Shown: piece by piece, positions 1 to 49,186 of the stretch
Layout: each line of letters opens with the position of its first letter
How positions within the stretch are numbered: the stretch's first letter is position 1
Source of the DNA: Gammaproteobacteria bacterium
GTDB lineage: Bacteria > Pseudomonadota > Gammaproteobacteria > Francisellales > CACEW01
Length of the DNA stretch: 64,000 nt
NCBI GenBank assembly: GCA_965662575.1
Contig: CBFIHN010000001.1
Coordinates: 26,852 to 90,851, forward strand
Direction: 5' to 3'
Program-made: the position numbers and the translations under genes
Notes under the pieces: generated by a model
The model's database searches: none
Told to the model about the DNA's origin: nothing
Seen by the model: only the letters and a program-made list of their open reading frames with translations

Positions 1-1602
1 TTACTTAGTATCGGCATGCTATTGGCGCTGATCACTATTATTGCGGGCACTGCGTTATTGGCTGTTTCTGGCTGGTTTATTTCCGCAGCAGCCTTTGCAG
101 GCTTAACCCTTAGCGCTTCTCTGGCGTTTAATTTTTATTTACCAGCTGCGGTTGTACGCGCCCTAGCCATCATTCGTATTGTTTCACGTTATGGTGAACG
201 CGTACTAAGCCACGAAGCGACTTTCCATATTTTATCGCAGCTTCGCGTCTGGTTATACCAACACTTATTACCCTTAATGCCAGGTTACTTACTGGTGCGC
301 CGCAGTAGCGATTTACTAGCCCGCATGGTTAATGATGTTGAGGCAATGGACCATGTTTATCTGCGCATTGTATCCCCCTTGGTCGTCGCAGTGATTGTTC
401 TAGCTTTACTCTGTGCCGTACTACATGCCTTCAGCATAAATATAGCCTGGACGGTTTTTGTTCTTATGATCGTGATAGCCATTGTTCTACCAGCACTGTC
501 TTATTGTCTTGCCCGCAAACCCGGTGAACAACAAGCAAAAATGCACAGTGTCCTGCGTGCGCACAGTGTCGAGTTTTTTCAAGGCTTAACTGCCTTGCTG
601 TGTTTTAATGCGGCAAAACAACAAATCAATGCCCTCGCAGCTGATGATCAAGCCTTACATCACGCACAACGACAGATGGCTAGCAATAAAGCCATGACCA
701 CCGGCTTAATCACCCTGCTATCGGGTATAACAGTATGGGTCGCCATGTATCTTGGCATACCGTTAGTCCATCTGCATCAACTCAATGGCGCGAACTTAGC
801 ATTAATTGCATTGCTAATCTTTGGTGCATTTGAAGCAATTATGCCACTCACCTTGGCCTTTCAGGCTTGGCGTAAAACCGCTTATTCAGCAAAACGTTTA
901 ACTGCCATTGCCAAAGAAAAGCCGGCGATAGAATTCGTACCAAGCAGTGTGGCACAACCTCAAAATGCACAACTATGCTTTGATAAGGTCTCGATTGCCT
1001 ATCGCACAGGCCACCCGGTAATCGATGACTTTTCCCTAACGATCAATCCTGGTGAACGCATTGCCATTGTCGGCCCAACTGGCTGTGGTAAAACCTCCAT
1101 TATTAATAGCTTACTGCGTTTTATTCCGTTGACCTCCGGCTCAATTAGCTTGGGCGGTGTATCAATTGACCAATTGACTGAAGCCGACCTGCGCCGGATG
1201 ATTACTTTAGTCGATCAACGCCCACATGTCTTTAATGGCACCATTGCGAATAATTTACGTATTGCCAAAACGGATGCCACGGAGCAAGAAATGCATGCCG
1301 CATTAGCTAGTGCACAATTGGATGAGTTTATTGCAAAACTTGATGCGGGCTTAGATACTTGGGTTGGCGAAGGAGGGAAAAACTTATCAGGTGGCCAGGC
1401 CCGCCGATTAGTTATTGCCCGAGCTTTATTGCATGATGCACCGATTGTGATTCTTGATGAGCCGACCGAAGGCCTGGATAGTATCACGGCACAAAAAGTC
1501 ATGCGCTCTTTAAATAGCTTAATGCAAAATCGTAGTGTCATCTTGATCAGTCACAAGCCACAGGATGTTGCAGCCCTAGTTGAGCGTATTGTCGTGCTAT
1601 AG
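1..1602 (+). CDS. cydC: ABC transporter permease/ATPase, CydC-like thiol-reductant exporter subunit (5' end cut by window edge)
   Basis: The frame is open from nt 1; the ORF track starts at an internal Met at nt 16. A hydrophobic multi-TM N-half is followed by an ABC ATPase with Walker A GPTGCGKT, signature LSGGQARR and Walker B VILDEPTEGLD. EPTEGLD is typical of CydC/CydD. Confidence 0.75.
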   Translation, partial: LLSIGMLLALITIIAGTALLAVSGWFISAAAFAGLTLSASLAFNFYLPAAVVRALAIIRIVSRYGERVLSHEATFHILSQLRVWLYQHLLPLMPGYLLVRRSSDLLARMVNDVEAMDHVYLRIVSPLVVAVIVLALLCAVLHAFSINIAWTVFVLMIVIAIVLPALSYCLARKPGEQQAKMHSVLRAHSVEFFQGLTALLCFNAAKQQINALAADDQALHHAQRQMASNKAMTTGLITLLSGITVWVAMYLGIPLVHLHQLNGANLALIALLIFGAFEAIMPLTLAFQAWRKTAYSAKRLTAIAKEKPAIEFVPSSVAQPQNAQLCFDKVSIAYRTGHPVIDDFSLTINPGERIAIVGPTGCGKTSIINSLLRFIPLTSGSISLGGVSIDQLTEADLRRMITLVDQRPHVFNGTIANNLRIAKTDATEQEMHAALASAQLDEFIAKLDAGLDTWVGEGGKNLSGGQARRLVIARALLHDAPIVILDEPTEGLDSITAQKVMRSLNSLMQNRSVILISHKPQDVAALVERIVVL

Positions 1603-1639: not shown

Positions 1640-2977
1640 TCACAACAGTTTTGGCACCGACCAAATTGCCTGTAGGGAATTCAGTGTTATCTCTCCTAAT
1701 CTGGATAAAGTTTCAGCACCAATATTCAAAGGAGGTAGCCAATATATCGTATGACCAAGTGGTCGCAGTAATGCGCCTTGCCGAACTGCCTCTTGGTATA
1801 ATTGATAACCGGCACGACTAGGTAAGTTTTCAGCGGCTAAATCTGCTGCGATTACAGCACCAATACCACGAATATTCGTTAGCATACCGGTTTTGTCTGC
1901 CACACGGTCAAACTCTTGCCTCATCATGGCTTGGAGTTGGGCTGCTCGATTGATAAGCCCCTCCTGTTCTATCACATTGAGCGTTGCTAAAGCCAAACTG
2001 ACACCAAGAGCATTGCCAGAGTAGGTGTGTGAATGTAAAAAAGCCTTCCCAGACTCGTTGTCGTCATAAAATGCTTGGTAAATAGGGTTGGTAGTTAGCA
2101 CAGCGCTAAATGGCATCCAACCAGACGTTAAGCCTTTCGATAAACAAACAAAGTCTGGTTTAATCAATGCGTGCTCACAGGCTAACATTTTCCCAGTTCG
2201 ACCAATGCCTGTCATAATTTCATCAGCGATTAAATGGATATCATGCTGCTTGGCAAAATTTGCTAACCGAGATAAGAAATCTTGGCTATATACTTTCATC
2301 CCACCAGCACCCTGTAAAATAGGCTCGACAATGATGGCTGTGGCGTTATCGCAATATGGCAATAACGTTTTTTCAACTTCACCCCAATGTAATTCAGCAT
2401 TGTGCCAAGCAGGATCATCAGCGCCACTGACAGACAGTGGTTCAACTAAAATAGGGTCAAATAACATGGTGCGATATGGCGTGCGATATAGGCCGAGATC
2501 ACTCACACTTAATGCACCACTTGTTTCACCATGATAGCCATTTTTTAAGGCAATAAATTGAGTTTTGTTCGTGTTACCCTCTAAAACTCGGTAATGTAGG
2601 CTCATTTTCATAGCGACTTCAACTGCACAGGAACCATCACCAGCATAAAAAACCTTCTCTAAATGTGGCATGAATGTGGTTAATTTTTGAGAGAGCCTCG
2701 TTATATTTTCATGCGTGGTATTGGCAAAGATAACATGCTCAAATTGCTCAATCTGATGAAGCAGTGCCTGCTTAAGTACTGGGTGATTATGCCCTAGCGA
2801 CTTGCACCACCAACTCGAAATGGCATCAATAATTTTTTTACCATCAGATAACTCTAGATAACTGCCATAAGCACGCTTTATCACTAATGGCCTGAATTGC
2901 TCATAATCTTTCATTTGTGAGCAAGGATGCCAATTATATTTGAGGTCTAGCTGTTGTAAATCTGCATCAATTATCAT
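1640..2977 (-). CDS. bioA: Adenosylmethionine-8-amino-7-oxononanoate aminotransferase
   Basis: 445-aa class-III PLP aminotransferase. It has a BioA-like N-terminus (DLKYNWHPCSQMKD) and a PLP-lysine context (CLSKGLTSG). It is transcribed divergently from bioB, as in classical bio loci. Confidence 0.9.
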   Translation of the reverse strand: MIIDADLQQLDLKYNWHPCSQMKDYEQFRPLVIKRAYGSYLELSDGKKIIDAISSWWCKSLGHNHPVLKQALLHQIEQFEHVIFANTTHENITRLSQKLTTFMPHLEKVFYAGDGSCAVEVAMKMSLHYRVLEGNTNKTQFIALKNGYHGETSGALSVSDLGLYRTPYRTMLFDPILVEPLSVSGADDPAWHNAELHWGEVEKTLLPYCDNATAIIVEPILQGAGGMKVYSQDFLSRLANFAKQHDIHLIADEIMTGIGRTGKMLACEHALIKPDFVCLSKGLTSGWMPFSAVLTTNPIYQAFYDDNESGKAFLHSHTYSGNALGVSLALATLNVIEQEGLINRAAQLQAMMRQEFDRVADKTGMLTNIRGIGAVIAADLAAENLPSRAGYQLYQEAVRQGALLRPLGHTIYWLPPLNIGAETLSRLGEITLNSLQAIWSVPKLL

Positions 2978-3009
2978 TTGTAAACCTATTTATATTAATG
3001 GTTGACTAA
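2978..3009. promoter_or_regulatory. Candidate BirA operator (bioO-like inverted repeat) in the bioA/bioB divergent promoter region
   Basis: TTGTAAACC (2978-2986), a 13-nt AT-rich spacer, then GGTTGACTA (3000-3008). The right arm matches the reverse complement of the left at 7/9 positions. The left arm is identical to the E. coli bioO half-site TTGTAAACC. A birA with an N-terminal HTH is encoded nearby. Confidence 0.55.
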
Positions 3010-3063
3010 GTGGAGATTAGCACCTACCATGTGCTGAAACAAGCAACGCAATAAAAAAAACTT

Positions 3064-4029
3064 ATGAGCCATTTTTTCGTCACCAAAGAGTTCATCAGTG
3101 AGCTATATCAAAAGCCTTTTTTTGAGTTAATACACCAGGCCTACCAATGCCATAGCGTACACTTTGAAGCTGGCGATATGGAATTCTGTGCCTTATGCAG
3201 TATCAAAACAGGTGCTTGTCCCGAAGACTGCGCTTATTGCCCGCAAAGTGGGCACTATAAAACCGGCCTGCAAAAAGAAAAACTGCTCGATATTAACGAC
3301 GTCTTGGACCAGGCTAAATTAGCAAAGGCTAATGGTGCCAAACGTTTTTGTATGGGCGCAGCTTGGAAAAATCCACCCAAGAAGGATTTCCCTAAAGTAC
3401 TTGAGATGATTGAGTCTGTGAAGGCGCTTGGCTTAGAGACCTGTGCAACACTTGGGATGCTCGATAAAAATCAGGCCGATGAATTGAAGGCGTCAGGATT
3501 AGATTATTATAATCACAATCTCGATACATCACCTGATTATTACCCAACGATTATTCAAACCAGAACCTATCAAGATCGCATTGATACTTTACATACCGTC
3601 GCTGCTGCAGGTATTAACGTCTGCTGTGGTGGCATTATTGGCATGGGAGAGACGCGTGAGGATCGTGTTGGCTTTCTATTAGCGCTAGCAGACCTACCTT
3701 CTGCACCTCAAAGCATTCCCATTAATGAATTGATTCCAATACCGGGCACACCACTAGCAAACCAACAAGCGGTTGATAGCTTTGAATTCATCAGAACAAT
3801 TGCGATCACAAGAATTTTATTTCCTAAATCCAAAGTTAGGCTATCTGCAGGTCGAGAAAACATGTCAGATGAGATGCAAGCTTGGTGTTTTATGGCTGGT
3901 GCTAACTCAATATTTATCGGTGATAAATTACTCACTGCAAAGAACCCAGGACAAAACCAGGATATCCACCTATTAAACCGACTGGGATTAAACGTTCCTA
4001 GGATTGCGAAGCAAAGTCAAAAATGCTGA
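3064..4029 (+). CDS. bioB: Biotin synthase (radical SAM)
   Basis: 321 aa. Radical-SAM cluster motif [11 protein letters not shown]. Full-length BioB-like sequence ([20 protein letters not shown]). Confidence 0.95.
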
Positions 4030-4264
4030 GTGAATCATTAGATCACAGACTATCCGGGCATAGAACTAGACAACCAATCGAGCTAGGAAAATGATTGCAG
4101 CAATCATATCACCGGTGATGGAAACATCCACATCCATTTCTCTAGTGATGATAACTGGGAGCTTAAAATGCACCTCACACTGACATGCTTGACGAGGCGG
4201 CACGACACTCATGGTTGATGATGTTCCTGGCATGGATGTTCTTGGGAAGATGGGCAAATGCTAA
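4023..4264 (+). pseudogene. bioF: Probable relic of bioF (8-amino-7-oxononanoate synthase): start retained, most of the gene deleted, multiple frameshifts
   Basis: The bioB-bioH spacer is only 228 bp, whereas a full bioF would need ~1.15 kb. An ATG at 4023 overlaps the bioB stop (ATGCTGA) and gives [23 protein letters not shown]. Another frame at 4196-4264 reads GGTTLMVDDVPGMDVLGKMGKC*, resembling the conserved BioF block LMVDDAHGxGVLGxxGxG with the His replaced. Confidence 0.5.
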
Positions 4265-4971
4265 GCAAAATAAAGAACGTTTATGCTATCCCAGGCTGGG
4301 GGTTTGCCACAACCATTTTTACAGAACTAAAGACTAACAAGTTCGATATTGTTGGCCTAGATTATATGGGATCTCGGGCATCTTCAATCCATGACATAAC
4401 GGCAATAATCGCCGCGAAAGTTCCAAATCATTCTATCTTACTAGGCTGGTCTTTTGGTGGAATGCTCGCAATCAAATTGGCCGCACAACACCCCAGCAAA
4501 GTAAGACGCTTGATGCTTTTATCTAGTCAACCAAAATTATGTGTCGATGGTCAATGGCTTGGTATCAGTCAAACCAATGCAAATCAGTTTCTAGAACAAT
4601 TTGAGAAATCACCACAGCAGCAAATGAAATATTTTGCTCGGCTGCTTTGCTATCCGTCTCGTTCGCCCACGTTACGTCAAATCATACAAAAGCACATGAT
4701 TGATGAAGCCCAAACAGAGCTAAACTCGCTTTTAAAAATGTTGTTTAGTGAAGATTTAAGGCAAGACTATAGCAAATTGGGTATTGATATCCTTCACCTC
4801 ATTTGTGAACAAGATGTTGTTTTAAAGCAACATGCCAGTCAGTTACAAAACCTCAACCATAGAGTCAAAGTGATTAGCCTCGAGGACGCGGGGCATGCTG
4901 ATTTCCTAGTATCACCCAGCAGATATTCTGCAGCGATAGAACAGTTTATCAACCATGACAAATCAGATTAA
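4258..4971 (+). CDS. bioH: Pimeloyl-ACP methyl ester carboxylesterase (alpha/beta hydrolase)
   Basis: 237 aa. N-terminal IPGWGF, nucleophile elbow GWSFGG and C-terminal EDAGHADF, collinear with BioH. It sits between bioB and bioC, as in bioBFHCD operons. Confidence 0.8.
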   Translation: MLSKIKNVYAIPGWGFATTIFTELKTNKFDIVGLDYMGSRASSIHDITAIIAAKVPNHSILLGWSFGGMLAIKLAAQHPSKVRRLMLLSSQPKLCVDGQWLGISQTNANQFLEQFEKSPQQQMKYFARLLCYPSRSPTLRQIIQKHMIDEAQTELNSLLKMLFSEDLRQDYSKLGIDILHLICEQDVVLKQHASQLQNLNHRVKVISLEDAGHADFLVSPSRYSAAIEQFINHDKSD

Positions 4972-5704
4972 AAAGAAAACCTGCCAGCACTTTAATAAAG
5001 CTGCAGCGACTTATGATGCACATTGCAGCGTGCAAAACCAGATATGTGCCCATTCACTACAGTGCTTACGTAAGTTTGGATCTGACTTTCACTATATTGC
5101 TGATTTTGCCTGTGGCACGGGTGAAAGCACCTTACAACTCATACAGCATCTTACATTTCATCAATGCTATGCACTTGATTTCGCGAAACAACTACTCACC
5201 GTGGCTCATAACAAACTTGTGGAATACGAATATATTGAAATTATTGAAGCGGACTTCGAGCAACCGTTGCTTATGATGAATAACCTTGATCTGATTTTCT
5301 GTAATATGGGACTGCAATGGTCTAATGATATCGCGAAAACACTCAACCTATGGCATTCATATTTAGATGATAACGGCCTATTGTTATTTTCAATGCCAAC
5401 CTCGAATAACTTCAAAGAGCTCGTACCTGAATATAAACCAAAATTCATGACACATCAGAAAATTGTTAGTCTTTTATCCAAACAAAAATGGGGGTTACTG
5501 CTGACAGATATGACTGAAATAGTGCAGCCTTTTGACCACCCCCTTGACGCCTTAAGGTCATTAAAAGCAACAGGGACAAATTCTAATAAAGGCATTTATA
5601 AAAGACTTGGATTATCACCCATGAAGCTTGAACAAGTGTTTATTGACCCAACTGACGCCAAGCTGACTTATCAAATTGGTATTTACCTAGCGAGGAAAAT
5701 TTAG
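4955..5704 (+). CDS. bioC: Malonyl-ACP O-methyltransferase
   Basis: 249 aa class-I SAM methyltransferase. N-terminal FNKAAATYDAHCSVQ and SAM motif I IADFACGTGE. Its start overlaps the bioH 3' end. Confidence 0.85.
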   Translation: MTNQIKKKTCQHFNKAAATYDAHCSVQNQICAHSLQCLRKFGSDFHYIADFACGTGESTLQLIQHLTFHQCYALDFAKQLLTVAHNKLVEYEYIEIIEADFEQPLLMMNNLDLIFCNMGLQWSNDIAKTLNLWHSYLDDNGLLLFSMPTSNNFKELVPEYKPKFMTHQKIVSLLSKQKWGLLLTDMTEIVQPFDHPLDALRSLKATGTNSNKGIYKRLGLSPMKLEQVFIDPTDAKLTYQIGIYLARKI

Positions 5705-6384
5705 TGAAAAACACCATATTTATGACGGGAACTGACACCGACATTGGGAAAACCTACGTGACTTGCTTGATGCTAAAAGCATTCAATGAATCTGGATTAA
5801 ATACACTCGCATTAAAACCAATTGCCTCAGGGTGTCATAAGAATGAACAAGGTGAGCTTAGAAACGACGATGCTTTGCAACTGCAACAACATGCCAACAT
5901 TACAATCCCTTACTCAAGCGTTAACCCCATTACATTTGAACCACCCATTGCACCACATATTGCTGCGCATAATATAGGGGAAAAACTGTCCATACAGCAA
6001 ATCGGAGACACCATAAAAAACTTGACTTGTCATTCAGCTGATATGACGTTGATTGAAGGTGTTGGTGGTTGGTCCGTTCCTATTAATCATAGCGAACTAC
6101 TCTCTGATGTCATCGCACAACTAGAGATCCCCATCATTCTAGTTGTTGGCATCAAATTAGGTTGCCTTAACCATGCGCTATTAACCTATCAGAATATTCA
6201 AGCAAAAAATGTGCCTATACTGGGGTGGATGGCAAATTGTATAGACCCTAATACGCTATCAATACCGGAAAATATCGATACATTGGCACAGTGGATAAAT
6301 GAGCCATGCCTTGGGATTGTACCTTATGGTGATAAATCGACAACGTGTATTGATACAAAGCTAATCCGCGACCGACTTCTTTAA
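5704..6384 (+). CDS. bioD: ATP-dependent dethiobiotin synthetase
   Basis: 226 aa. The GTG start overlaps the bioC stop (TAGTG). P-loop FMTGTDTDIGKT and IEGVGGW motif. Confidence 0.9.
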   Translation: MKNTIFMTGTDTDIGKTYVTCLMLKAFNESGLNTLALKPIASGCHKNEQGELRNDDALQLQQHANITIPYSSVNPITFEPPIAPHIAAHNIGEKLSIQQIGDTIKNLTCHSADMTLIEGVGGWSVPINHSELLSDVIAQLEIPIILVVGIKLGCLNHALLTYQNIQAKNVPILGWMANCIDPNTLSIPENIDTLAQWINEPCLGIVPYGDKSTTCIDTKLIRDRLL

Positions 6385-7356
6385 AATCGAGGCATCTCCA
6401 GAAGAAAAAGCTAGCATTTGACCAGCCTCATTCTTTACCTGTAAATGTCCGTACTTGTTGATGCCTAAATACAAACCCGTGATTATTTTCTTGCCAGATA
6501 CCAGTGATATGTGAGAGTTAGTCAGACAATCTCGCTGTTGCCATTCAGATTGAAAAACCTCTAACCCTTGTGATGAGAACTTTTCTAAATAATCGATGAC
6601 TGTATCGATAATATCTGGAACAAGCTGGTTACGATCAATATAGGCATTCACCGTGTTAGCCAGGGATGTCCAGTTTTGATCAATATCAGTCTGACCTGCT
6701 TTCTTCATGTTAACATTGAGACCAACACCAATGATAACCTGGCAAAAACCATTAGATTCTGCTTGAATCTCAATTAATGTCCCTGCCAGTTTTTTGCCCT
6801 CGAGTACAATATCATTTGGCCATTTGATCTTTAAAAGTTCACTGGGAATCTCTATCACTGAATTAATAGCACGGCATACAGCAAGACCGACGACTAAACT
6901 CAAACCGCTTAATTCACTAATATCCTTGTCAAAAGGGCAGAGCAAGGAAAGATAAACATTATCTGCAAATGGGGAATACCATTGCCGTTGCAGCCTAGCT
7001 TTTCCAGCAGTTTGAGTTTCAGCTAGGCAAGCGATAATATCCTGGTTGCCTTCGGATAGCGCTTTCAAGTAATCATTAGTAGAGGCGATTTTTTCCAACA
7101 CCACTACATTAACTGAGCGATGCCTAAGCCTAGACTGTAGTTGGTTTTTATCTAGAAGTAACAGCCGAGTATTTAGCTGATAACCTTTGCCTTTAGTCGA
7201 TGTTAATGGCACGTGATATTGTTTTAGCTTCTTAATTGCCTTACAAATCGCTGCGCGCGAAGTCTCTAACTCATGACCGATAGATGTCCCATCATGATAT
7301 TGCCCATCGTTAAGTAATTTAACCAATTCAACTAAATTCTGATTAAGTTCTCTCAT
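6361..7356 (-). CDS. birA: Bifunctional biotin-[acetyl-CoA-carboxylase] ligase / bio operon repressor
   Basis: 331 aa. N-terminal winged-HTH region (ETSRAAICKAIKKLKQYHV), ligase motif QTAGKARLQRQWYSP (compare GRGRRGRxW) and KWPNDI. Convergent with bioD, with the 3' ends overlapping. Confidence 0.9.
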   Translation of the reverse strand: MRELNQNLVELVKLLNDGQYHDGTSIGHELETSRAAICKAIKKLKQYHVPLTSTKGKGYQLNTRLLLLDKNQLQSRLRHRSVNVVVLEKIASTNDYLKALSEGNQDIIACLAETQTAGKARLQRQWYSPFADNVYLSLLCPFDKDISELSGLSLVVGLAVCRAINSVIEIPSELLKIKWPNDIVLEGKKLAGTLIEIQAESNGFCQVIIGVGLNVNMKKAGQTDIDQNWTSLANTVNAYIDRNQLVPDIIDTVIDYLEKFSSQGLEVFQSEWQQRDCLTNSHISLVSGKKIITGLYLGINKYGHLQVKNEAGQMLAFSSGDASILKKSVAD

Positions 7357-7531
7357 CAGCCCACCTTGAACGTATTTGCTTCTAAGTTGGTGTATCGATA
7401 AAAACCCGTCCTGAACACTGTTAAGATCTTGTCAATATCATGCATACCCACACCCTGGTTATACCCATTTTAGCCATTAGAACTTACTCATAGGTAAGCA
7501 AGGTATGACAATAATGCAAAATCTAAAACCC

Positions 7532-8824
<1,293 letters not shown>

Positions 8825-8916: not shown

Positions 8917-10659
8917 TCAGCCGACAGCCAAATAGCCACCTAACTGCATCTGATATTTTCCATTAGGCACAGCAATTGATTGACACTGCGCACTATCTAT
9001 TGTGCCATTGCTTGAATTTAGCGGACAGGCTTGCAACGTGATTTGATTTTTTTTCGTGAGGTAAATATAAGCCTGCTCAGCATTAATCCGATAAATCGCT
9101 GCCCCACGACCTAAATCAGCAAAATGTTGAAATGAACAATGCTCAAATGTTGGCTGATCCGCCGAGTCAATAAACTCAGTATCTGGGCAACTATATATAC
9201 CGGTATAACCGGTACTTTTCTCAGCCGCAAAATAGGTATATTTTTTACCGTTAATCGACACTGACTTAACAAACAAAAACCGTCTGATCCCTTTAGGATG
9301 GGCGGATTGATAACAAGACTTACCCGAGCTTGCGCAATATTCTGGGGGAATTTTTTTTATTGGATGGTCGATCAAACGTGCATAGGTTAATTGATTGGTA
9401 TCAGTACTCGCAGAGATCAACCAATCACTATTGTTTTCAGAAATGACGGTCAGCGGGTAATTAGATAGGTTAAACATATCCCCCAGCTGAGCAACTGATT
9501 CAAGCTTACCACTTGCTATATTAAACCGCCTTTCAACGAGTGCAGGGTGTCTAGAGCCATTGCCATTGGCATTGAATAGATAATATTCCCCATTCAGATT
9601 TGCACTATAAATCATTGGCTGGACATATAAAAAGGAAACGCCCATCTGCTTGCAGGGGCTCTCAATAAAGGCCTTATTACTCACCGGACAATAGCTTAGG
9701 TAACCCAAATTATGTTGACTATTATGAGAGGAAATATAAAGATATTTTTGACCTGAGATATTAGCGATTTGCAATACACCATAAGACTGGATGTATTTAA
9801 AGTGAGGCTGACGCATTACAAAACCTTGATGACAAGAGCCCAGACTAGCTTGATTATTGATTTCACAGCGTGTTATCTGGTTGTCCGTTGAAATATAATA
9901 TAAATAAGAATTGGGTAAAATAATCAACGGCAGTAGGCCCTGGCCTGGCAGTAAATTGCTAGCATCAACCGCCAAATAATAGTGTGTCGGATAAGTGCTA
10001 CCTTTAATAGTTAAAGTCATTGTGCAAGACTGGCCAGGGTTGAGTATTATTGGACTTTGTTGCGTTCCGCACTGATCACTGCCGATGGTCACCCCTTGAG
10101 GTACCACTGGAAAAACATCAAACAACGGATTATGACTCGTATTCTTGATGCTGACGGGATAACTTTTCCCTTGCTTTAGCAAAAATTTAGTCATCGGCTT
10201 ACCATCAGAGAAAAAATTAACCGATGCTCTAGGGACTAGAGTATGAGGTGAAACAACTGTGACTGACTTTGATTTGCCAATCGTGCGATTTGCGACAACA
10301 GCTGACAGTAAATGTGCGCATGCTTGATTAGACGCCAACAACTGAAAACTTGCAATGGCGCCCACCCTGATGGTTTGCTGTTTCGGAGTAATGCTGAGTT
10401 TAGACTGACAATTGGATGAATCAATCAGTGCAACGTGGTATGACTGCTGACTCACGTTTTTTCCCGAACCGACAACCAAACCACTATCAGCATAACTCAA
10501 ACTAACAGAAGCCGTTGCACTGCCCAGCTGGGCGATACCTGCAGGAATGGCAATATGAGCAACCACCTGTTTGTCTGGGTTCACAGGAGCGACTGAATTC
10601 GTATGACTACCTGAACAGCCGGACAACAAAACAGTCAGTAAAATTAACCACCAAAACAT
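8917..10659 (-). CDS. Hypothetical lipoprotein with Cys-pair repeat modules
   Basis: 580 aa. Signal peptide plus lipobox (LLTVLLSGC|SG). The N-half has an Ig-like-looking segment (ILNPGQSCTMTLTIKG). The C-half has four or more repeat units, each with a Tyr-rich strand followed by a Cys...Cys pair: YLYYISTDNQITRCEIN..GSC, YLSYCPVSN..SPC, GIYSCPDTE..EHC, ITLQACPLNSS..AQC. I recognise no known family. Confidence 0.6.
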   Translation of the reverse strand: MFWWLILLTVLLSGCSGSHTNSVAPVNPDKQVVAHIAIPAGIAQLGSATASVSLSYADSGLVVGSGKNVSQQSYHVALIDSSNCQSKLSITPKQQTIRVGAIASFQLLASNQACAHLLSAVVANRTIGKSKSVTVVSPHTLVPRASVNFFSDGKPMTKFLLKQGKSYPVSIKNTSHNPLFDVFPVVPQGVTIGSDQCGTQQSPIILNPGQSCTMTLTIKGSTYPTHYYLAVDASNLLPGQGLLPLIILPNSYLYYISTDNQITRCEINNQASLGSCHQGFVMRQPHFKYIQSYGVLQIANISGQKYLYISSHNSQHNLGYLSYCPVSNKAFIESPCKQMGVSFLYVQPMIYSANLNGEYYLFNANGNGSRHPALVERRFNIASGKLESVAQLGDMFNLSNYPLTVISENNSDWLISASTDTNQLTYARLIDHPIKKIPPEYCASSGKSCYQSAHPKGIRRFLFVKSVSINGKKYTYFAAEKSTGYTGIYSCPDTEFIDSADQPTFEHCSFQHFADLGRGAAIYRINAEQAYIYLTKKNQITLQACPLNSSNGTIDSAQCQSIAVPNGKYQMQLGGYLAVG

Positions 10660-19374: not shown

Positions 19375-20380
19375 ATGAAAAAAAACCATTATCATCACCG
19401 GCGCTAGTGGTTTTGTTGGCCAGGCGCTATGCAAACAACTTGCTCAATCTGGATACCAGATTAAAGCCGTTGCGCGTAGTGAGGATAAGATAAAAAATCT
19501 CACCGATTAATATCCCAATCAGATTTCAGCTGTTATCTGTGAGGACATAGCCAACCCAGAACGACTTGCCGAATATATCGAAAAAAATGATGTTATGATT
19601 CACCTTGCTGCTCGTGTGCATATCCTAAATGATCAAGCCAAAAATCCTAAGGCTGAGTTTGAGCGCATTAATGCTGAAGGCACAAAGAAATTAGCGAAAT
19701 TAGCGAAATTAGCAAAGCAAAAACACGCTAGTCAGTTTGTTTTTATCAGCTCTATTCATGTTAGCGGCCAACAGACTAATGGCATGGCATTTACAGAAGA
19801 ACAGCAAGCGGATCCGCATGGCGCTTACGCCATTAGCAAACACAATGCTGAGCAAGAATTGGCTGATATTTTTAAAGAGAGCGAAACACAGTGGTGTATT
19901 ATTCGTCCACCGTTAGTGTATGGCCCCGGGGTTAAAGGTAATCTTGAAGCCCTCGAAAATATCTTAAAAAAACAAATCCCACTACCTTTTGCCAGCCTTA
20001 ATGCAAAACGCCATTTTGTTTATGTTGGCAACCTCATCTCCGCAATTGAGGCTGTTGTGGAAAAACCCGAGCAAAGCCATCAACAGTTATTTTTAGTGGC
20101 TGATAATGAAAGCTTTGCCACAGATGAACTAATGAAAATAATGGCTACAATTTTGGGTTTAAAAACCAAGATACTGCCGTGCCCAGTGTGGCTATTATCA
20201 TTATTATTTACCTGTCTTGGAAAAAAAGAGCAACTTGATAAGCTCAATGCAGAGCTTTTAGTCAGCAATGAAAAAATTAAACAGATGCTTGATTGGCAGC
20301 CACCTTATACTTTGGAGCAAGGTTTACAAAAAATGTTTAGCCCATTATTTTACTCGCCTGCTGCCAAGGGAGCACCGTAA
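19375..20380 (+). pseudogene. NAD-dependent sugar epimerase/dehydratase (SDR, WbpV/GalE-like), inactivated
   Basis: ATG 19375 is followed by an A8 run (19378-19385) that puts the Rossmann motif TIIITGASGFVGQ out of frame; A7 would restore it. That frame then hits an in-frame TAA at 19508-19510 before continuing into ORF 19595-20380 (catalytic YAISK). This is the only plus-strand gene inside the glycan locus. Its 3' end overlaps ATPase B convergently by 44 nt. Confidence 0.75.
19687..19713. repeat. Perfect 3 x 9-bp tandem repeat (GAAATTAGC) inside the epimerase pseudogene
   Basis: GAAATTAGC GAAATTAGC GAAATTAGC read directly from the sequence. It encodes (LAK)3 in the epimerase frame. Confidence 0.9.
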
Positions 20381-21521
20381 TTTTATCATTGAATTGATAA
20401 GGTTCTGGCGTGCGGCAAATAAGATACCCTTGCTCAGCCTCGCTATATTCATTAATAAAAGTTAGGAGGTGACGCACATCTTTAGTTTTAGGTGCAGTGG
20501 TATATTTAACCTCTACAGGAATGTACTGCTGGTTGATTTCAAGCACAAAATCAACTTCCGGACCATTACTATCTCGCCAGTAATAAATCTTTGCTGACGG
20601 CGCACGTATCTGACTTAAATAGACCAGCTCATTGCCAATCAATTGCTCAAATAATTGTCCCAATATAGCGGATGGCAGCCGTGTTCCTTCATTAGCACAA
20701 CTGCGACGGATACCCAAATCAAAAAAATGATACTTAGGCGACTTAATCAAACGACGTTTTGTGCTTGACTTAATTAGCGGGTCAATTCTAAGCGCAATGA
20801 GGCAATCTTCGAGAATTTGATAATAATTAGCAATTGTTGTGTCCGAGATACCAATATCTTGAGCTAAGGATAAAAAATTAAGTTGCTTTCCAGACTCTCC
20901 TGCCGCTAATTGTAAAAAACGACTAAAATGACCCACATTACGGACCAATGCTTCTGCTCTAATCTCTTCCTCCAAATAAGTAGAAACATAGCTCATTAAA
21001 TCTTGCTCTTGGTGATCTAGATTAGTTTGCTGAATAATATTGGGTAAAGAACCATAGAGCAGCATATTCTCAAGTTCTGGCAGAGCTTTTGCCACAGTTA
21101 GCTCACTAATCAGCATCGGCGGCATGGTAAATTGCACAACGCGACCTGGTAATAAGTTTAGCTCCGAGCCAGCCTTAAGCTTTCGTGCCGAAGAGCCTGT
21201 AAGAATAAATTGAGCACGCTTTTGGTCAATCAATACCTGAACAATATCCATCACTCTAGGCACTTTTTGCACTTCATCAATAAAAACTAAAGGGGGTTGT
21301 GAATACTGAGCAATGGCATAAGTTAGCACCTTCTCAAACCTAACCAGGTCAGACTCAGCCTGTTGGCGATGTTGCTGTTTAGCAAAATTATAATGCAGAT
21401 CAGGCTTAATGACATTTTCAATGAGCGTGGTCTTACCCGTCTGCCTTGGCCCAAGCAACAAAACATTCTTTCCACGATCAAGTGTTTCTTGAATAGACTG
21501 AGCAATCAATCTCGAAAGCAT
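20337..21521 (-). CDS. AAA+ ATPase with C-terminal PD-(D/E)xK-like module (COG1373 type), copy B
   Basis: 394 aa. Walker A GPRQTGKT, Walker B LVFIDEVQ and C-terminal GPEVDFVLEINQQYIPVEVKYT. Confidence 0.7.
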   Translation of the reverse strand: MLSRLIAQSIQETLDRGKNVLLLGPRQTGKTTLIENVIKPDLHYNFAKQQHRQQAESDLVRFEKVLTYAIAQYSQPPLVFIDEVQKVPRVMDIVQVLIDQKRAQFILTGSSARKLKAGSELNLLPGRVVQFTMPPMLISELTVAKALPELENMLLYGSLPNIIQQTNLDHQEQDLMSYVSTYLEEEIRAEALVRNVGHFSRFLQLAAGESGKQLNFLSLAQDIGISDTTIANYYQILEDCLIALRIDPLIKSSTKRRLIKSPKYHFFDLGIRRSCANEGTRLPSAILGQLFEQLIGNELVYLSQIRAPSAKIYYWRDSNGPEVDFVLEINQQYIPVEVKYTTAPKTKDVRHLLTFINEYSEAEQGYLICRTPEPYQFNDKITVLPWQQASKIMG

Positions 21522-21935: not shown

Positions 21936-23048
21936 TCACACCAACCGCTGCAAAAACTTAACCGCAGGACACACTGCAATACCATGGTGCAAAAAATCTT
22001 TATCTCCCATTGATAACTGCCAAGCTTCACAATCGGGAAATCGCTGTTTAAAATATAACAGAGATTTACTGGTATCAGCATCACTCAGCTTACATTCAAT
22101 CGCATGAATTGGCTGACCATTTTCTGTAATAATAAAATCGACTTCACGGCCATCGACATCTCGGAAGTAGTTGAGCTCTATATCTCTAGCCTGGGTATCT
22201 TGCTCATAATGCACCCATTTTAACAAATGCATCGCGATCATATTTTCAAAGCGAGCACCTTGATCTTCTAGCAAAGTCCAATCAAAGTGATAATGCTTTT
22301 GCTCTTTTTTAACCGCACGCAATATCGGCGAGCCAAAAGGTGCAACACGATGGATAGCATACAGGCGCTCAAAAATATCTAACCAATGGCTCACCGCCTT
22401 ATGACTCACCTGAAGATCTTCACGCAAATTATTAATCGACAAGGGAGAACCGACTAATTCTGGCAACCTTAGCATCAATAACTCAAGCTGGTAAATATCC
22501 TTAACTTGCTCTAATGAACCTACATCTTCTTGCAACAAGCGCTGGCGATAGGCTCGAGACCAACGTTTTGCATCCACTTTCGATGAAGAAAAAAAAGGCT
22601 CCGGAAAACCACCTAAAGTAAAAAGCTCGTGCAACTGATCAGTCGTTGTCATATCAAGCTCAGCAGCTGATAATTGATGAAGCCGCAAATAATAATAACG
22701 CCCCTGCAAAGAATCACCGCCGCGCCGATAATAATCCAAGCGCGCGCTGCCAGTAACTAGAATTTGCTTTTGATCGCGATACTCGTCAAATACACCTTTG
22801 ATATAATCTCGCCACTGTAGATACTTATGAATTTCATCAAACACCCATAAAGGTGCATTAGGAAGCTGATGCTTGAGCAATTGCTCTCGGTCTTTTGCAA
22901 TATCCCAATTGAGATAACCGTGCTTATCAGACAGCAAGGCTTGAGACATGGTGGTCTTGCCAACCTGACGCGCACCACCAATAAAGACCATTTTCTTTCC
23001 GAGATCTTTTTTGATTTGCTTTGAGATATAACGATTGTGAGTACTCAT
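21936..23048 (-). CDS. AAA+ ATPase with C-terminal PD-(D/E)xK-like module (COG1373 type), copy C
   Basis: 370 aa. Walker A GARQVGKT, Walker B LWVFDEIH and C-terminal GREVDFIITENGQPIHAIECKLS. Confidence 0.7.
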   Translation of the reverse strand: MSTHNRYISKQIKKDLGKKMVFIGGARQVGKTTMSQALLSDKHGYLNWDIAKDREQLLKHQLPNAPLWVFDEIHKYLQWRDYIKGVFDEYRDQKQILVTGSARLDYYRRGGDSLQGRYYYLRLHQLSAAELDMTTTDQLHELFTLGGFPEPFFSSSKVDAKRWSRAYRQRLLQEDVGSLEQVKDIYQLELLMLRLPELVGSPLSINNLREDLQVSHKAVSHWLDIFERLYAIHRVAPFGSPILRAVKKEQKHYHFDWTLLEDQGARFENMIAMHLLKWVHYEQDTQARDIELNYFRDVDGREVDFIITENGQPIHAIECKLSDADTSKSLLYFKQRFPDCEAWQLSMGDKDFLHHGIAVCPAVKFLQRLV

Positions 23049-23130: not shown

Positions 23131-24300
23131 TTACATGGCACCCAAACAAACTTCCGCAATAATTTTTAATTGCGCAGCAACTTGCTCCTCGCACAAAGTT
23201 GGATGAATTAAAAACACCAATGACGTTGCAGTTAACTCCGCTGCATTTTTTAATCTTGCCTCTGGTTCCAACCCCAAATCAGTAAAGACTTTTTCTTGGT
23301 AAATTTCAGAACAGCTACCCGAGAAGCATGGGATACCACGATTAACTAGCTCAGCCATTAATCGATCTCGGCTCCAGCCTTGCTTTAGCTTAGATAGGTC
23401 AACCTGCGTATAGTATTTATAATTTGCATGCTTGATATCAGATTGCTTTAGATCCATAACTTTGAAACAGTCAATTTTAGCTAGACCTTCTGAAAACATC
23501 TGCGCTAATTTGGCTCGCTGTACTAACCAATCAGGCAATTTCTTGAGCTGGCAACGCCCAATCGCAGCTTGCATTTCCGTCATCCGCCAATTAGTTCCTA
23601 CCGCTTCATGCAGCCAACGAAAGCCTAAGGGGTGTTGCTTATGATAAACGGTATCATAGTTTTTACCATGATCTTTGACTGCCCATAGTTTTTGCCATAA
23701 AGCAGTATCATTGGTGGTTACCATGCCACCCTCACCACCCGTGGTCATAATCTTATCTTGGCAAAAGGAGAACGAGGCAATATGCCCCCAAGAACCAATT
23801 TTTCTACCTTGATATTCCGCACCATGGGCCTGCGCACAATCTTCAATAACAAATAGATTATGACTTTTCGCCAGATCCATAATTTTATCCATTTCACATG
23901 GCCAACCGTTGAAGTGCACTGGAATAACTGCTTTAGTTTTTTTTGTTAATTTCTCTTTAATCGTATCAACTGTGATATTTTGTGAATCTAGGTCCACATC
24001 AGCGAATATTGGCGTAGCGCCACACATCAATACGGCACTAGCTGTGGCAACAAACGTTTTGCAAGGCACAATCACTTCATCACCAGGACTAATGCCCAAA
24101 ACTCGTAAGGCAGCTTCAATGGTGACTGTGCCATTAGACATTGCAACCGCATGTTTGGCGCCAACACACTCAGCAAACTCGTTTTCAAATAAGCGGCCTT
24201 GCTCGCCGGTCCAATAATTGACTTTGCCGGATTTTAATACTTGCTCAACGGCTGAAATTTCATCTTCTGCAAAGTGGGGCCATGGGGATGTTAAATTCAT
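23131..24300 (-). CDS. DegT/DnrJ/EryC1-family sugar aminotransferase (PglE-like, C4 amination of a 4-keto-6-deoxy-HexNAc)
   Basis: 389 aa. Fold-type I sugar aminotransferase with PLP-lysine context FSFCQDKIMTTGEGG. It lies in a PglF/E/D/C-like set. Confidence 0.8.
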   Translation of the reverse strand: MNLTSPWPHFAEDEISAVEQVLKSGKVNYWTGEQGRLFENEFAECVGAKHAVAMSNGTVTIEAALRVLGISPGDEVIVPCKTFVATASAVLMCGATPIFADVDLDSQNITVDTIKEKLTKKTKAVIPVHFNGWPCEMDKIMDLAKSHNLFVIEDCAQAHGAEYQGRKIGSWGHIASFSFCQDKIMTTGGEGGMVTTNDTALWQKLWAVKDHGKNYDTVYHKQHPLGFRWLHEAVGTNWRMTEMQAAIGRCQLKKLPDWLVQRAKLAQMFSEGLAKIDCFKVMDLKQSDIKHANYKYYTQVDLSKLKQGWSRDRLMAELVNRGIPCFSGSCSEIYQEKVFTDLGLEPEARLKNAAELTATSLVFLIHPTLCEEQVAAQLKIIAEVCLGAM

Positions 24301-28598: not shown

Positions 28599-29738
28599 TT
28601 AAACACAGCGTATTTGATGAGAATATCGCTTATCTAATGTCTCATCAACGCCTTTAGATTGGATAAAAGTGATATAATAAAAACTAAAAATCATAAAATC
28701 ATAAAATCCTGGAAAAGACAGTGTATCAAAAGCTAGCCTTGCCATTACAATCAAAAATAATATTAGCTCAACCAATTTCAACCGAGAAGACACACGAATA
28801 AACAACAGCAAACACAACAAAATGAAAGGCAGCCCCATGTAATGGAAACCTCTAATAAAAGAATTGTGAGGATTATGATGGAAGGAATTAATCAATGCTG
28901 TATATGGATGTCCAAAAATAAAGTCTGATATATGCCACTGACTCATATCGAAATAACCAGACCAGATGTGGTAGCGAGGGGTCTGTAGACCTTCATGGAA
29001 GTTGCTATGACTGATTGCATCTAGGATATATGAGAAAAAAACAGGCATGCCGACACCAAGCCCAACAATTACAACAACAGCCAAAATGACCTTAACACGG
29101 AAAGTCTGTCGTTTGTATAACAATAATACTGCCAACAAAAACAATACAAAAGCCAAGCCTAAACTACTCCGACCATATGCCAAAAAACACAGGAGCAAAG
29201 TAATAATAATTGAATAAACAGGTAATTTTTTATATACACGGTAATGCAATAAAGCATAAAAGCTCTGAGTTAAAATTAAAATTCCTCCCACCTCATTCCT
29301 ACTACCGTCAACAAAATGTGACAGCAAAAAAGGATTTAACCAAATTTTTTGACTGGATATAAAAAAAATATAGATTAAAGTCATTATGATAAAAGTAGTG
29401 CAAATGGCAAAAGCTAACTGCTTTAGCGCAGGGAGAGAAAAGCCTCGAAATAGCTGTTGGGCAATTAAAAGATTCGCAAAAAATAAAACAGGAAAAACTG
29501 GCTGAGTATAATCATCATATCGCCAGACATTTAAAACAGCGATTAAAACACCTAAGATTGCACATATAAACAGGCTGTCAACGTAGACTTTTTTAGAAAA
29601 ACCAACCAAAAAGGACAACAAAGCAATAACTTCTAAAATCAAAAACAAATTATTGCCTGTAATAGCATACAAAGTAATGCACATAAAATAGCCATAAACA
29701 AAGGCAAGATTCAAATTTAATGCATTAACCCTCAGCAT
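28599..29738 (-). CDS. wzy: O-antigen polymerase/ligase-family membrane protein (Wzy_C-like)
   Basis: 379 aa with ~10 predicted TM segments in an AT-rich gene. A periplasmic-loop motif (HHNPHNSFIRGFHYMGLPF) resembles the Wzy_C signature (H-N-x-[FY]-[IL]...G). Confidence 0.6.
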   Translation of the reverse strand: MLRVNALNLNLAFVYGYFMCITLYAITGNNLFLILEVIALLSFLVGFSKKVYVDSLFICAILGVLIAVLNVWRYDDYTQPVFPVLFFANLLIAQQLFRGFSLPALKQLAFAICTTFIIMTLIYIFFISSQKIWLNPFLLSHFVDGSRNEVGGILILTQSFYALLHYRVYKKLPVYSIIITLLLCFLAYGRSSLGLAFVLFLLAVLLLYKRQTFRVKVILAVVVIVGLGVGMPVFFSYILDAISHSNFHEGLQTPRYHIWSGYFDMSQWHISDFIFGHPYTALINSFHHNPHNSFIRGFHYMGLPFILLCLLLFIRVSSRLKLVELILFLIVMARLAFDTLSFPGFYDFMIFSFYYITFIQSKGVDETLDKRYSHQIRCV

Positions 29739-42012: not shown

Positions 42013-43125
42013 TTAACTCTCTAATTCTTTACTGACTGGGTAGCCATTATCTATTAAAAACTTGTCGCGCTGCATTAACTTGATATCTGCCGCCATCATA
42101 CTACTCACTAAGCCTTGCAAATCATATCGGGGCCTCCAGTTTAGTTTTTGATGAGCCTTACTGGGGTCACCAATCAGCAGATCTACTTCTGTTGGCCGGA
42201 AGTAGCGCGAATCTACAGCAACAACTTCCTGACCATAAGGCAATTGATAATCTGCATTATGACATTGTTTCACAACTGCTATTTCATCGACACCTTGCCC
42301 CTTAAACTCTAGCTCTATACCTAACTCCATAAAAGCCATGCGAACAAACTCTCTGACTTCGGTTGTGACACCAGTTGCCATTACCCAGTCTTCCGCTTGA
42401 TCAGTTTGTAAAATTAACCACATCATTTCAACATAGTCTTTAGCATGTCCCCAGTCACGCTTGGAGTTGAGATTGCCTAAATATAATTTATCTTGAAGCC
42501 CCAGTGCTATTTTTGCTGCTGCCCGAGTAATTTTTCGTGTAACAAATGTTTCACCGCGCACGGGAGATTCATGGTTAAACAAAATGCCATTGCATGCAAA
42601 AATATCGTAAGCTTCGCGATAATTAACTGTTATCCAGTAAGCATACATTTTGGCAACTGCATAAGGAGAACGAGGATAAAATGGTGTTGTTTCTGTTTGT
42701 GGAATCTCTCGAACTTTGCCATATAGCTCTGAAGTAGAAGCTTGATAAACTTTAGTTTTCTGCTCTAACCCCAAAATACGAATCGCCTCAAGAATCCGCA
42801 AGGTCCCTATACCATCGGCATTAGCGACATACTCAGGCGTTTCAAAACTCACATGAACATGACTCATTGCTGCTAAATTATATACTTCATCAGGCTGTAT
42901 ATCTTTTATCAAGCGCGTAAGATTCAATGAATCCGTCATATCGCCATAATGAAGCTGGAGCTGTGCATTACCTTGATGACCTTGATATAAATGATCAATA
43001 CGACTCGTATTGATTAAACTACTGCGCCTTACTAAGCCATGAACCTCGTATCCTTTATCTAGCAAAAGCTCTGCCAAATAAGAGCCATCCTGACCCGTAA
43101 TACCTGTAATAAATGCTTTTTTCAC
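42013..43125 (-). CDS. gmd: GDP-mannose 4,6-dehydratase
   Basis: Canonical Gmd N-terminus [33 protein letters not shown] and YAVAK catalytic motif. The preferred start is GTG 43125 (VKKAFITG), 7 nt after the manC stop. The ORF-track start (43173) lies inside manC. Confidence 0.9.
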
Positions 43126-43132
43126 TGAATAC

Positions 43133-44542
43133 CTACTTGTCTGCAAATCTAATAACATCTTCTTCTGACACAATATTACCAGAATGAATCTCTATCAACC
43201 TAACAGGCTCACTCTTACTGGCAGAGCCAATTCGATGTTTGCTATTGGATGGAATATTTAAGGATTCGCCAGCCTCCAACTGCTGTAAAACACCACCAAG
43301 CAAAACTTCTGCACAACCACTTAACACGGTTAACGTTTTGTTTTTCAATTTGTGTAGATGCAAGGAGGTGTGCATCCCTGGATTGATATAAACTTTTTTC
43401 ACGGCAAAAGTACTTCCCTTCACCAAGACATTGCTATACCCCCAAGGTGAGAAAAGCTTTCGATGCTGAATAGCTTCCTCACGCCCCCGCTCTTTTAGCG
43501 ATAATGCTATTTTTTTAACATCCTGAGTATGTCGCCGATCCGCAACCAACACTGCATCCGCGGTTTCAACCACAACCAAATCACTAACACCGGCAACCGC
43601 CAACAAGCGGTCATGCGACTTTAAAAAGCAGTCCTTCGCGCCAATCTCAATAACATCACCATCGACCACATTGGCTTGATTATCCTTATACTGAATATCA
43701 AACAACGCATCCCATGAACCAATATCTGACCATTTTGTATTGCTCAAAGGCAATAGCGCAATATCTTCTGACTGCTCCATCACCGCATAATCAATAGACT
43801 TAGATTCAGTTTGGGCAAACACTTCGATATCTTTAATACGAATAAAATCTAAATCAGGGTATGAAGATGCATAAGCTTGCTGGCATGAAGTATAGATATT
43901 CGGACAATATTTCTTGAGCTCCTCAAGATATTTTTCTACCGAAAATAAAAACATGCCTGAATTCCAATAATACTGTTCAGACTGGCTGTACTCTTTAGCT
44001 TTTTCCTCCTGCGGCTTTTCAATAAAAGAGCTGACAGAGAATGCACCACACTCTAATTCTTCTCCGCATTGAATATAACCATAGCCCGTATGGGGACTTT
44101 CAGGCCTTATGCCAAAAGTAAACAGGTAGTTTGTAAACCTAGGGCTCTCTCGTAAGCAATTCAACTTACTCAATACTTCACCAAAATCATCGATATAGTG
44201 ATCGGCAGGAAGCACCAACATCATTGCACCTGGGTCATCTTTTGCTATTGCAAAGGCTGCCAAAGCAACGGCTGGCGCTGTATCTTTAGCAAAAGGCTCA
44301 AGAACAATTCTTCCAGGCGAAACATCGATTTCCCGCAAAGACTCTGCCACCTGAAACCTTTGAGTCTCGTTACAGACAACTAAAGGATTAGAAAATCCTT
44401 TCAGCCCCTTAAAACGCAGGCAAGTGTTTTGCACAAGATTCCTTTCATTGACCAGTGGAATAAACTGCTTAGGAGAATTTTGACGAGACAGAGGCCACAA
44501 CCTCAACCCCGAGCCTCCTGACAATACTACAGGATAAAACAA
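43133..44542 (-). CDS. manC: Mannose-1-phosphate guanylyltransferase / mannose-6-phosphate isomerase (bifunctional type)
   Basis: 469 aa. [16 protein letters not shown] at the N-terminus and a C-terminal cupin (PMI type II) domain. First gene of the operon. Confidence 0.9.
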
Positions 44543-48597: not shown

Positions 48598-48613
48598 CTT
48601 TACTAGTACCTTA

Positions 48614-49186
48614 TTAATCTCTGAGAAAAACTCTATCACCTTCCAACCGATATTGACAGCCATCTTGATCAACTGCAACATCTTGCGTATCAAACTGCAG
48701 CTTCTCACCTAATCGATCAACCCAGCCTATCTGCCGTGCTGGAACGCCTGCCATTAAGCCAAAAGGCTTCACGTCTTTGGTCACTACCGACCCCGCACCA
48801 ATTAATGCATACTCACCGACCGTAACACCACAGACAATCGTTGCATTCGCACCCACTGAACAGCCTTTTTTAAGCAGGGTTTTCTTAAACTCTTCTTTAC
48901 GATTGACATGGCTGCGTGGATTAATCACATTGGTAAACACCATCGACGGCCCGAGGAACACATCATCTTCACACTCAACACCATCATAGATCGAAACATT
49001 GTTTTGAACTTTGATATTATTGCCAAGGGAAACATTCGGCCCAACGACACAGTTTTGCCCAAAGGAACAACGTTCACCAATTTTGCTGCCAGAAAGAATA
49101 TGACAGAAATGCCAAATTTTAGTATCCATGCCGATTTCAACTTGGTCGTCGATATAACTACTTTCGTGGACGAAATAGTTACTCAC
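48614..49186 (-). CDS. wbpD: UDP-2-acetamido-3-amino-2,3-dideoxy-glucuronate N-acetyltransferase (WbpD/WlbB-like)
   Basis: 190 aa LbH protein. It has the WbpD-like N-terminus [26 protein letters not shown]. The GTG start overlaps the HEPN gene's last codons by 8 nt. Confidence 0.8.

Follow-up and report, generated by a model that had tools for sequence, protein, structure and literature searches.

The biotin operon in a 64 kb stretch of gammaproteobacterial DNA (64,000 nucleotides, nt, of the 92.5 kb contig CBFIHN010000001.1; this whole stretch is called the window below) runs bioB-bioH-bioC-bioD, and the interval joining its first two genes, positions 4023-4264, is very probably a pseudogene remnant of bioF, the gene for 8-amino-7-oxononanoate (KAPA) synthase; we put the probability of this at about 0.9. 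The remnant has lost most of the gene and drifts almost freely, while the genes around it show the pattern expected from purifying selection. A preliminary description of the window, made from its letters, had already read the spacer as a reduced bioF, and what it reported on the locus holds, apart from two corrections of detail.

Evidence for a bioF remnant between bioB and bioH

Searching with BioH, we found two close relatives of the window, L081 (the Logan assembly of SRR33375165) and L082 (GCA_030148065.1), the sole close relatives in the collections searched; among JGI metagenome contigs scanned with BioH, no match exceeded 42% identity and the matches were short segments, yielding no close relative. 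In comparison with the window, the two are 90% and 82% identical in BioB, 85% and 83% in BioA, and 73% and 61% in BioH, respectively. Both have bioA, the operon bioB-bioF-bioH-bioC-bioD and birA in this order, and the gap between bioB and bioH is filled by an intact bioF of 386 (L081) and 385 (L082) codons, whose start overlaps the bioB stop and whose stop overlaps the bioH start. The best NCBIfam match of these genes is TIGR00858, with 413 and 407 bits against a cut-off of 426, Kbl scoring about 100 bits lower. More widely, bioF lies immediately 3' of a similar bioB in 82 of 83 loci.

The decisive searches were made with L081 BioF against the whole window. The three best tblastn matches window-wide all fell in the spacer and were colinear with the query (E values 1e-4, jointly for two matches, and 0.006):

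4023-4073, frame 3: BioF amino acids (aa) 1-17, 59% identity
4090-4173, frame 1, reading NDCSNHITGDGNIHIHFSSDDNWELKMH: BioF aa 27-54, 50% identity
4193-4258, frame 2: BioF aa 193-214, 59% identity

A short string in frame 2, NRARKMIAA, corresponds to BioF aa 19-27, linking the first block to the second. At the DNA level, blastn aligned 4023-4177 with bioF nt 1-166 (67% identity over 166 columns, E value 2.5e-11) and 4208-4261 with bioF nt 592-645 (83% identity without gaps, E value 2e-12). The best local DNA score of the spacer was 60, in comparison with a mean of 19.9 and a maximum of 36 in 1,000 dinucleotide-preserving shuffles and a maximum of 27 when 112 other pieces of 228 nt from the window were scored. 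When the window was cut into 3,547 six-frame fragments and scored with a BioF hidden Markov model (HMM) built from 120 homologues, two fragments from the spacer ranked first and second. The synteny with the relatives, these homology matches with their controls and the 82 loci together argue that the spacer is what is left of bioF and that the ancestral order was bioBFHCD, with bioF once standing in the present bioB-bioH gap. The translated search and the comparison of the interval with related genomes, both of which the preliminary description had proposed, thus gave significant similarity to BioF and a bioF gene at the corresponding position in L081 and L082.

The remnant can be divided as follows:

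4023-4264 (+): whole bioF remnant, from the original start over the bioB stop through the original stop over the bioH start
4023-4177 (+): 5' block, bioF nt 1-166 (aa 1-56); deletions of 1 nt and 10 nt take it from frame 3 to 2 and then 1
4178-4207 (+): 30 nt that cannot be placed, the sole remainder of bioF nt 167-591
4208-4261 (+): internal block, bioF nt 592-645 (aa 198-215), followed directly by the bioF stop and bioH start

The ATGCTGA at 4023-4029, noticed earlier, contains the ATG that overlaps the bioB stop and opens a 23-codon open reading frame (ORF; 4023-4094), and this ORF is the true BioF N-terminus. Further into the 5' block, the decayed NDYLGL motif now reads DDNWEL. Just before bioH, frame 2 reads RGGTTLMVDDVPGMDVLGKMGKC across 4193-4261, its TAA stop (4262-4264) overlapping the bioH start at 4258. 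The internal block reads LMVDDVPGMDVLGKMGKC in place of LIIDDAHGIGVLGKMGKG in L081, DDAHG having become DDVPG; the BioF-like block with a His-to-Pro change that the preliminary description had placed here is thus the one matched by tblastn at aa 193-214. That description had found the initial ATG and the DDAHG block but missed the frame-1 block (aa 27-54) and the identity of the first ORF with the BioF N-terminus. It had also ascribed the loss of bioF to an internal deletion plus frameshifts, and the mode of loss stands but the single deletion does not: about 395 nt are missing within bioF nt 167-591, shifting the frame, and another 513 nt (171 codons, in frame) from nt 646 almost to the 3' end. 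Along the remnant the reading frame changes three times, in the order 3, 2, 1, 2, and several stop codons interrupt it. Aligned with those of L081 and L082, the BioH N-terminus of the window corresponds residue by residue, and the bioH start codon is unchanged.

In total, about 210 of 1,161 nt are retained and about 950 are missing. The longest in-frame piece is 30 codons, in place of the uninterrupted ORF of approximately 380-390 codons expected of BioF. The site for pyridoxal phosphate (PLP) is lost as well, the His of DDAHG being substituted and aa 215-386 of the relatives' BioF, with the PLGKAFG segment, being deleted in the window. We take this segment to carry the Schiff-base (PLP-binding) lysine of BioF, and the two PLP-site residues, the DDAHG histidine and this lysine, to be His207 and Lys236 in the E. 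coli numbering. Because most of the gene, including the catalytic-lysine region, is deleted, we conclude from the sequence that no active enzyme can come from the locus. The relatives' functional bioF (TIGR00858, PF00155) and the remnant share their position and their overlapping start and stop codons, with 59%, 50% and 59% amino acid identity in the three blocks and 67-83% identity in DNA; unlike the functional gene, the remnant combines its reduced length with frame changes, stops, the His-to-Pro substitution and the absence of the C-terminal 171 codons. By these features it is to be classed with bioF pseudogenes, homologous to the enzyme family but outside its functional members.

The 30 nt at 4178-4207 were split by global alignments into pieces of 3-14 nt that differed between L081 and L082. 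Placements of this stretch on bioF were rejected: alignments with low gap costs overfit, and two candidate positions, around aa 115-126 in frame 1 and aa 180-195 in frame 3, were no better than chance. At the 3' side, ATGGGC and GGCA strings occur at both edges of the 513-nt deletion in L081 bioF (nt 631-640 and 1141-1152, or L081:7015-7024 and 7525-7536), a pattern suggesting that the deletion may have arisen by slippage between short direct repeats.

The history would then have started from an ancestor with bioA, bioB-bioF-bioH-bioC-bioD and birA, as in L081 and L082. From this, bioF would have lost approximately 395 nt and 513 nt, together with the 1-nt and 10-nt deletions, and taken up substitutions including that of the DDAHG histidine. 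What was left over would be the first 166 nt spread over three frames, the 30 unplaceable nt, 54 nt at DDAHG and the original stop, and the remnant would now serve merely as transcribed spacer between bioB and bioH. Several observations favour transcription continuing across it: no terminator-like site was found in the spacer, its RNA fold is unremarkable (z-score 0.21, no more stable than shuffles), an Rfam search of the spacer gave no match, and a palindrome upstream of bioB, described below, is conserved. The only promoter-like site in the spacer was at chance level, and Pfam gave no match for an antisense 63-aa ORF (4066-4257) or the short sense ORFs.

Short ORFs do tile the remnant (4023-4094, 4091-4183, 4185-4337 and 4211-4264). 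The first starts in the ATGCTGA at the bioB stop, the second starts in an ATGA at the stop of the first, the third begins 2 nt past the stop of the second, and the stop of the last overlaps the bioH start (ATGCTAA). The remnant could therefore have been retained for a function compatible with its being a pseudogene, the chain of ORFs holding ribosomes on the mRNA and coupling the translation of bioH to that of bioB. Survival of both original overlaps, the in-frame 3' deletion, the close spacing of the ORFs and the higher identity of the gapless 3' block (83% versus 67% in the 5' block) all agree with this. However, chance alone would put ORFs of 17-50 codons into a stretch of 228 nt, bioB and bioH themselves constrain the first and last overlaps, which fall within them, the difference between the blocks rests on few sites, and the conservation comparison is limited to one genome with a remnant; we give such coupling little probability. 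Lastly, the idea that the spacer is unrelated to bioF, resembling it by chance in an ancestral bioB-bioH order, could appeal to the marginal tblastn match of distant BioF queries (L001-L003, whose BioB is 63-65% identical; E value 0.48, DDAHG block only) and to the lack of NCBIfam matches among five short spacer peptides in hmmscan at E values up to 10, the peptides being too short for the HMMER filters, but it is refuted by the relatives' synteny, the tblastn and blastn matches of L081, the BioF HMM, the shuffle control and the 82 of 83 loci, and has a negligible chance of being correct.

Decay of the remnant and constraint on its neighbours

The remnant sits in an otherwise complete biotin gene cluster:

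16-1602 (+): cydC (ORF listing and NCBIfam scan)
1640-2977 (-): bioA, intact, divergently transcribed (TIGR00508, 480 bits, cut-off 405)
3064-4029 (+): bioB, intact, first gene of the operon (TIGR00433, 400.7 bits, cut-off 225; CPEDCAYC motif)
4030-4257: bioB-bioH spacer of 228 bp
4258-4971 (+): bioH, intact (best match TIGR01738, 106 bits; GWSFG motif)
4955-5704 (+): bioC, intact (TIGR02072, 147 bits)
5704-6384 (+): bioD, intact (TIGR00347, 163 bits, cut-off 83.3; GTDTDIGKT motif)
6361-7356 (-): birA, convergent with bioD, its product carrying a repressor domain at the N-terminus (NF008847, 284.6 bits; TIGR00121, 172 bits; TIGR00122, E value 1e-8)
7532-8812 (-): purA (ORF listing and NCBIfam scan)

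The spacer has the length of 228 bp given in the preliminary description. Its view that bioA, bioB, bioH, bioC, bioD and birA are intact agrees with the family scores, the motifs, the protein lengths and the selection estimates below. BioA, BioB and BioD pass their NCBIfam cut-offs, and BioH, BioC and BirA have their best matches to their own families. The scores of BioH and BioC (106 and 147 bits) compare with 105.6 and 110.4 for BioH and 159.8 and 148.1 for BioC in L081 and L082, respectively. In this clade, several proteins fall below the curated NCBIfam equivalog cut-offs (BioH about 106 versus 207, BioC about 147 versus 185, BirA 285 versus 293, and the BioF of L081 and L082 about 410 versus 426), and automatic annotation may for that reason leave BioH, BioC, BirA and the relatives' BioF unnamed.

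To compare the remnant with these genes, we counted changes specific to the window at sites where L081 and L082 agree, L082 acting as the outgroup. The proportions of changed sites at codon positions 1, 2 and 3 were:

bioF remnant: 13.6%, 21.0% and 30.8%
six intact genes (bioA, bioB, bioH, bioC, bioD and birA), range: 5.1-11.9%, 2.3-6.7% and 22-27%

The excess of second-position changes in the remnant was significant against each intact gene (Fisher P values from 0.003 to 1e-6). The ratio of nonsynonymous to synonymous substitution rates (dN/dS) of the six genes against L081 was 0.08-0.18 (bioB 0.08, bioC 0.15, bioH 0.18), not above the values between L081 and L082. Their proteins differ by at most 3 residues in length from those of the relatives, BioC, BioD and BirA being identical in length. 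While the remnant, once 1,161 nt long, shows at least four insertions or deletions (indels), the other approximately 4.4 kb of bio genes contain no frameshift, and birA has kept its frame as well. We conclude that bioA, bioB, bioH, bioC, bioD and birA are, to judge by these patterns, under purifying selection and that selection on the remnant is, within a small sample, relaxed relative to its neighbours.

Change at the second positions of the remnant nearly equals that at silent sites, so that bioF appears to have gone without selection over much of its lineage's own branch and, reading the 62 second-position sites at face value, perhaps for half of it or more. By this estimate the loss of bioF is not very recent. 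Third-position change on the branch leading to the window is 22-27%, in comparison with 13-20% on that of L081, in all six genes, which indicates that the window lineage evolves faster overall.

Source of KAPA synthase activity

BioC and BioH make pimeloyl-ACP (ACP, acyl carrier protein), and the only established use of this product that we know of is as the substrate of BioF. Because bioC and bioH are maintained under selection while the remnant has drifted almost neutrally, KAPA is probably still made by an enzyme encoded elsewhere. We therefore lean, at odds a little better than even, towards a biotin synthesis that still runs, with a KAPA synthase encoded outside the window, be it a second bioF or a different alpha-oxoamine synthase. 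This reading is favoured over a dead pathway, and it makes the recent auxotrophy raised in the preliminary description less likely than before, given the near-neutral divergence of the remnant and the purifying selection on bioC and bioH.

Several points weigh against this account of the locus as a whole. The 64 kb window yielded neither a second bioF nor any other alpha-oxoamine synthase: the BioF HMM detected nothing besides the remnant, and none of the BioF-sized ORFs, all of which were checked, is an alpha-oxoamine synthase. A collection of 5.8 billion proteins, which includes the BioH of the window genome (P0001), held no homologue of L081 BioF between 77% (L082) and 100% (L081) identity; a relocated orthologous copy is thus unlikely, and a xenologous BioF at 60% identity or less elsewhere in the genome is possible. 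Two BioF matches found in NCBI only, P0044 and P0111, were rejected as relocated copies as they sit in bio operons of other genomes. The timing comes from approximately 200 aligned nt, with 13 changes among 62 second positions and a gapped alignment of the 5' block. With two close relatives only, the deletions cannot be dated on a tree, and the remnant is seen in one genome. If the contig belongs to a metagenome bin, the deletion could also be a minority variant. Apart from these points, a weak BioF-like match at 47548-48207 (-) was discarded as a DegT/PseC-type sugar aminotransferase, one of three DegT-type genes in a polysaccharide cluster.

The strongest competitor, though in our judgement rather unlikely, is that the pathway is dead and the organism is an auxotroph for biotin (or KAPA), fed by a host or neighbours, with bioA, bioB, bioH, bioC and bioD still without disabling mutations. 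The lack of a replacement gene in the window and among the close BioF homologues of the protein collection is consistent with this, as are the ankyrin-repeat and RCC1-repeat proteins encoded by the relatives. Such proteins are typical of host-associated Legionellales, in which vitamin pathways are often lost. There is also a precedent in a tick: in the Francisella-like endosymbiont of Hyalomma marginatum, five of the six biotin genes (bioA, bioD, bioC, bioF as well as bioB) are pseudogenes and a co-symbiont supplies biotin (PMC8709577). That bacterium, a host-associated gammaproteobacterium, likewise lost its bioF to indels and premature stops (PMC8709577). In contrast to the window, where bioF alone is lost and the other five genes are under purifying selection, five of the six genes decayed together there. 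The contrast within the window also argues against a dead pathway: the remnant carries at least four indels and 21% changed second positions, whereas the roughly 4.4 kb of bio genes have no frameshift, 3-7% changed second positions and dN/dS of 0.08-0.18. By a rough extrapolation from the indel density of the remnant, neutrality over an equal time should have left approximately 10 or more indels in these genes.

Within the reading that KAPA is still made elsewhere, the enzyme may be a non-orthodox one, although we consider this doubtful. It could be a promiscuous or recruited alpha-oxoamine synthase paralogue (Kbl-, serine-palmitoyltransferase- or LqsA/CqsA-like) or a non-homologous enzyme. 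The Kbl, serine-palmitoyltransferase and LqsA/CqsA autoinducer synthase families are homologous to BioF, as seen in the NCBIfam scan of the relatives' BioF. Replacements are known at other steps of biotin synthesis, BioH being replaced by BioJ or BioV, BioC/BioH by BioZ, and BioA by BioU. If real, a non-orthodox KAPA enzyme would make the BioF step a new case of non-orthologous replacement and give the biotin pathway a new alternative enzyme.

Less probable still is that KAPA or a later intermediate is scavenged, with bioA, bioD and bioB completing the pathway and another use of pimeloyl-ACP, or linkage, preserving bioC and bioH. Scavenging would account for the retention of the genes downstream of the BioF step, but bioC and bioH are under the same purifying selection as bioA, bioB and bioD, we know of no other established role for the products of BioC and BioH, and no transporter was seen, although none was searched for. 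It is very unlikely that the deletion stems from a faulty assembly, or is a minority variant of a metagenome bin whose population has an intact bioF, as the collapse of an assembly would not produce deletions of 1 nt and 10 nt, substitutions scattered over all codon positions and stops in the retained parts.

Decay of the biotin pathway is already well known in host-associated bacteria, and we regard the present case as ordinary pseudogene decay, a new instance of a known event, with the merit that the decay of a single gene is cleanly documented within an operon that is maintained in other respects. Annotators should label the spacer a bioF pseudogene, and no bioF should be counted here when the metabolism of this genome is reconstructed. 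The wider interest lies only in the fact that bioF looks long lost whereas bioC and bioH are still under selection, which predicts a KAPA synthase elsewhere.

Operon regulation and the surroundings of the cluster

The intergenic region of bioA and bioB contains one feature of regulatory interest:

2978-3008: BirA-operator-like imperfect palindrome TTGTAAACC-N13-GGTTGACTA, abutting the bioA start codon

Neither half-site, TTGTAAACC or GGTTGACTA, varies among the window, L081 and L082, and a promoter-like site, TTGACT-17-TACCAT (3002-3030), overlaps the palindrome. In our view the arrangement resembles bioO of E. coli, and the palindrome looks like a putative BirA operator; an inverted-repeat scan of 2950-3090 reported none at the settings used. 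Operons of the type bioBFHCD, with the BioC-BioH route to pimeloyl-ACP, are known from Pseudomonas, and the divergent bioA/bioBFCD arrangement of E. coli with its BirA operator is the model for regulation. The window agrees with the bioBFHCD type in its gene order, its overlapping gene boundaries, the divergent bioA, a (bifunctional) BirA with a helix-turn-helix domain and the conserved palindrome, and differs from it in having only a remnant of bioF and in birA adjoining the operon.

We compared the flanks of the cluster across window positions 1-1602 and 7532-8812, L081:146-3751 and L082:1439-3610. Beyond the bio/birA cluster synteny is lost: the window has cydC beside bioA and purA beside birA. 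Next to bioA, L081 encodes a 1201-aa ankyrin-repeat protein and L082 a 723-aa RCC1/WD40-like repeat protein. These eukaryote-like repeat proteins presumably point to a host-associated, Legionellales-like lineage.

Elsewhere in the window, a 580-aa ORF (8917-10659, -) gave no NCBIfam or Pfam match at the thresholds used, and a 379-aa ORF (28599-29738, -) gave no Pfam match. Two neighbouring paralogous genes for ATPases with AAA_14 and DUF4143 domains lie at 20337-21521 (-) and 21936-23048 (-). A long run of genes on the same strand, at approximately 23000-54000 (-), resembles a cluster for polysaccharide or O-antigen. Among its members are three DegT/DnrJ/EryC1 aminotransferases (23131-24300, 47542-48708 and 52375-53553), a GDP-mannose 4,6-dehydratase (42013-43173), a Polysacc_synt flippase (46095-47525) and a NeuD-type acetyltransferase (48614-49186).

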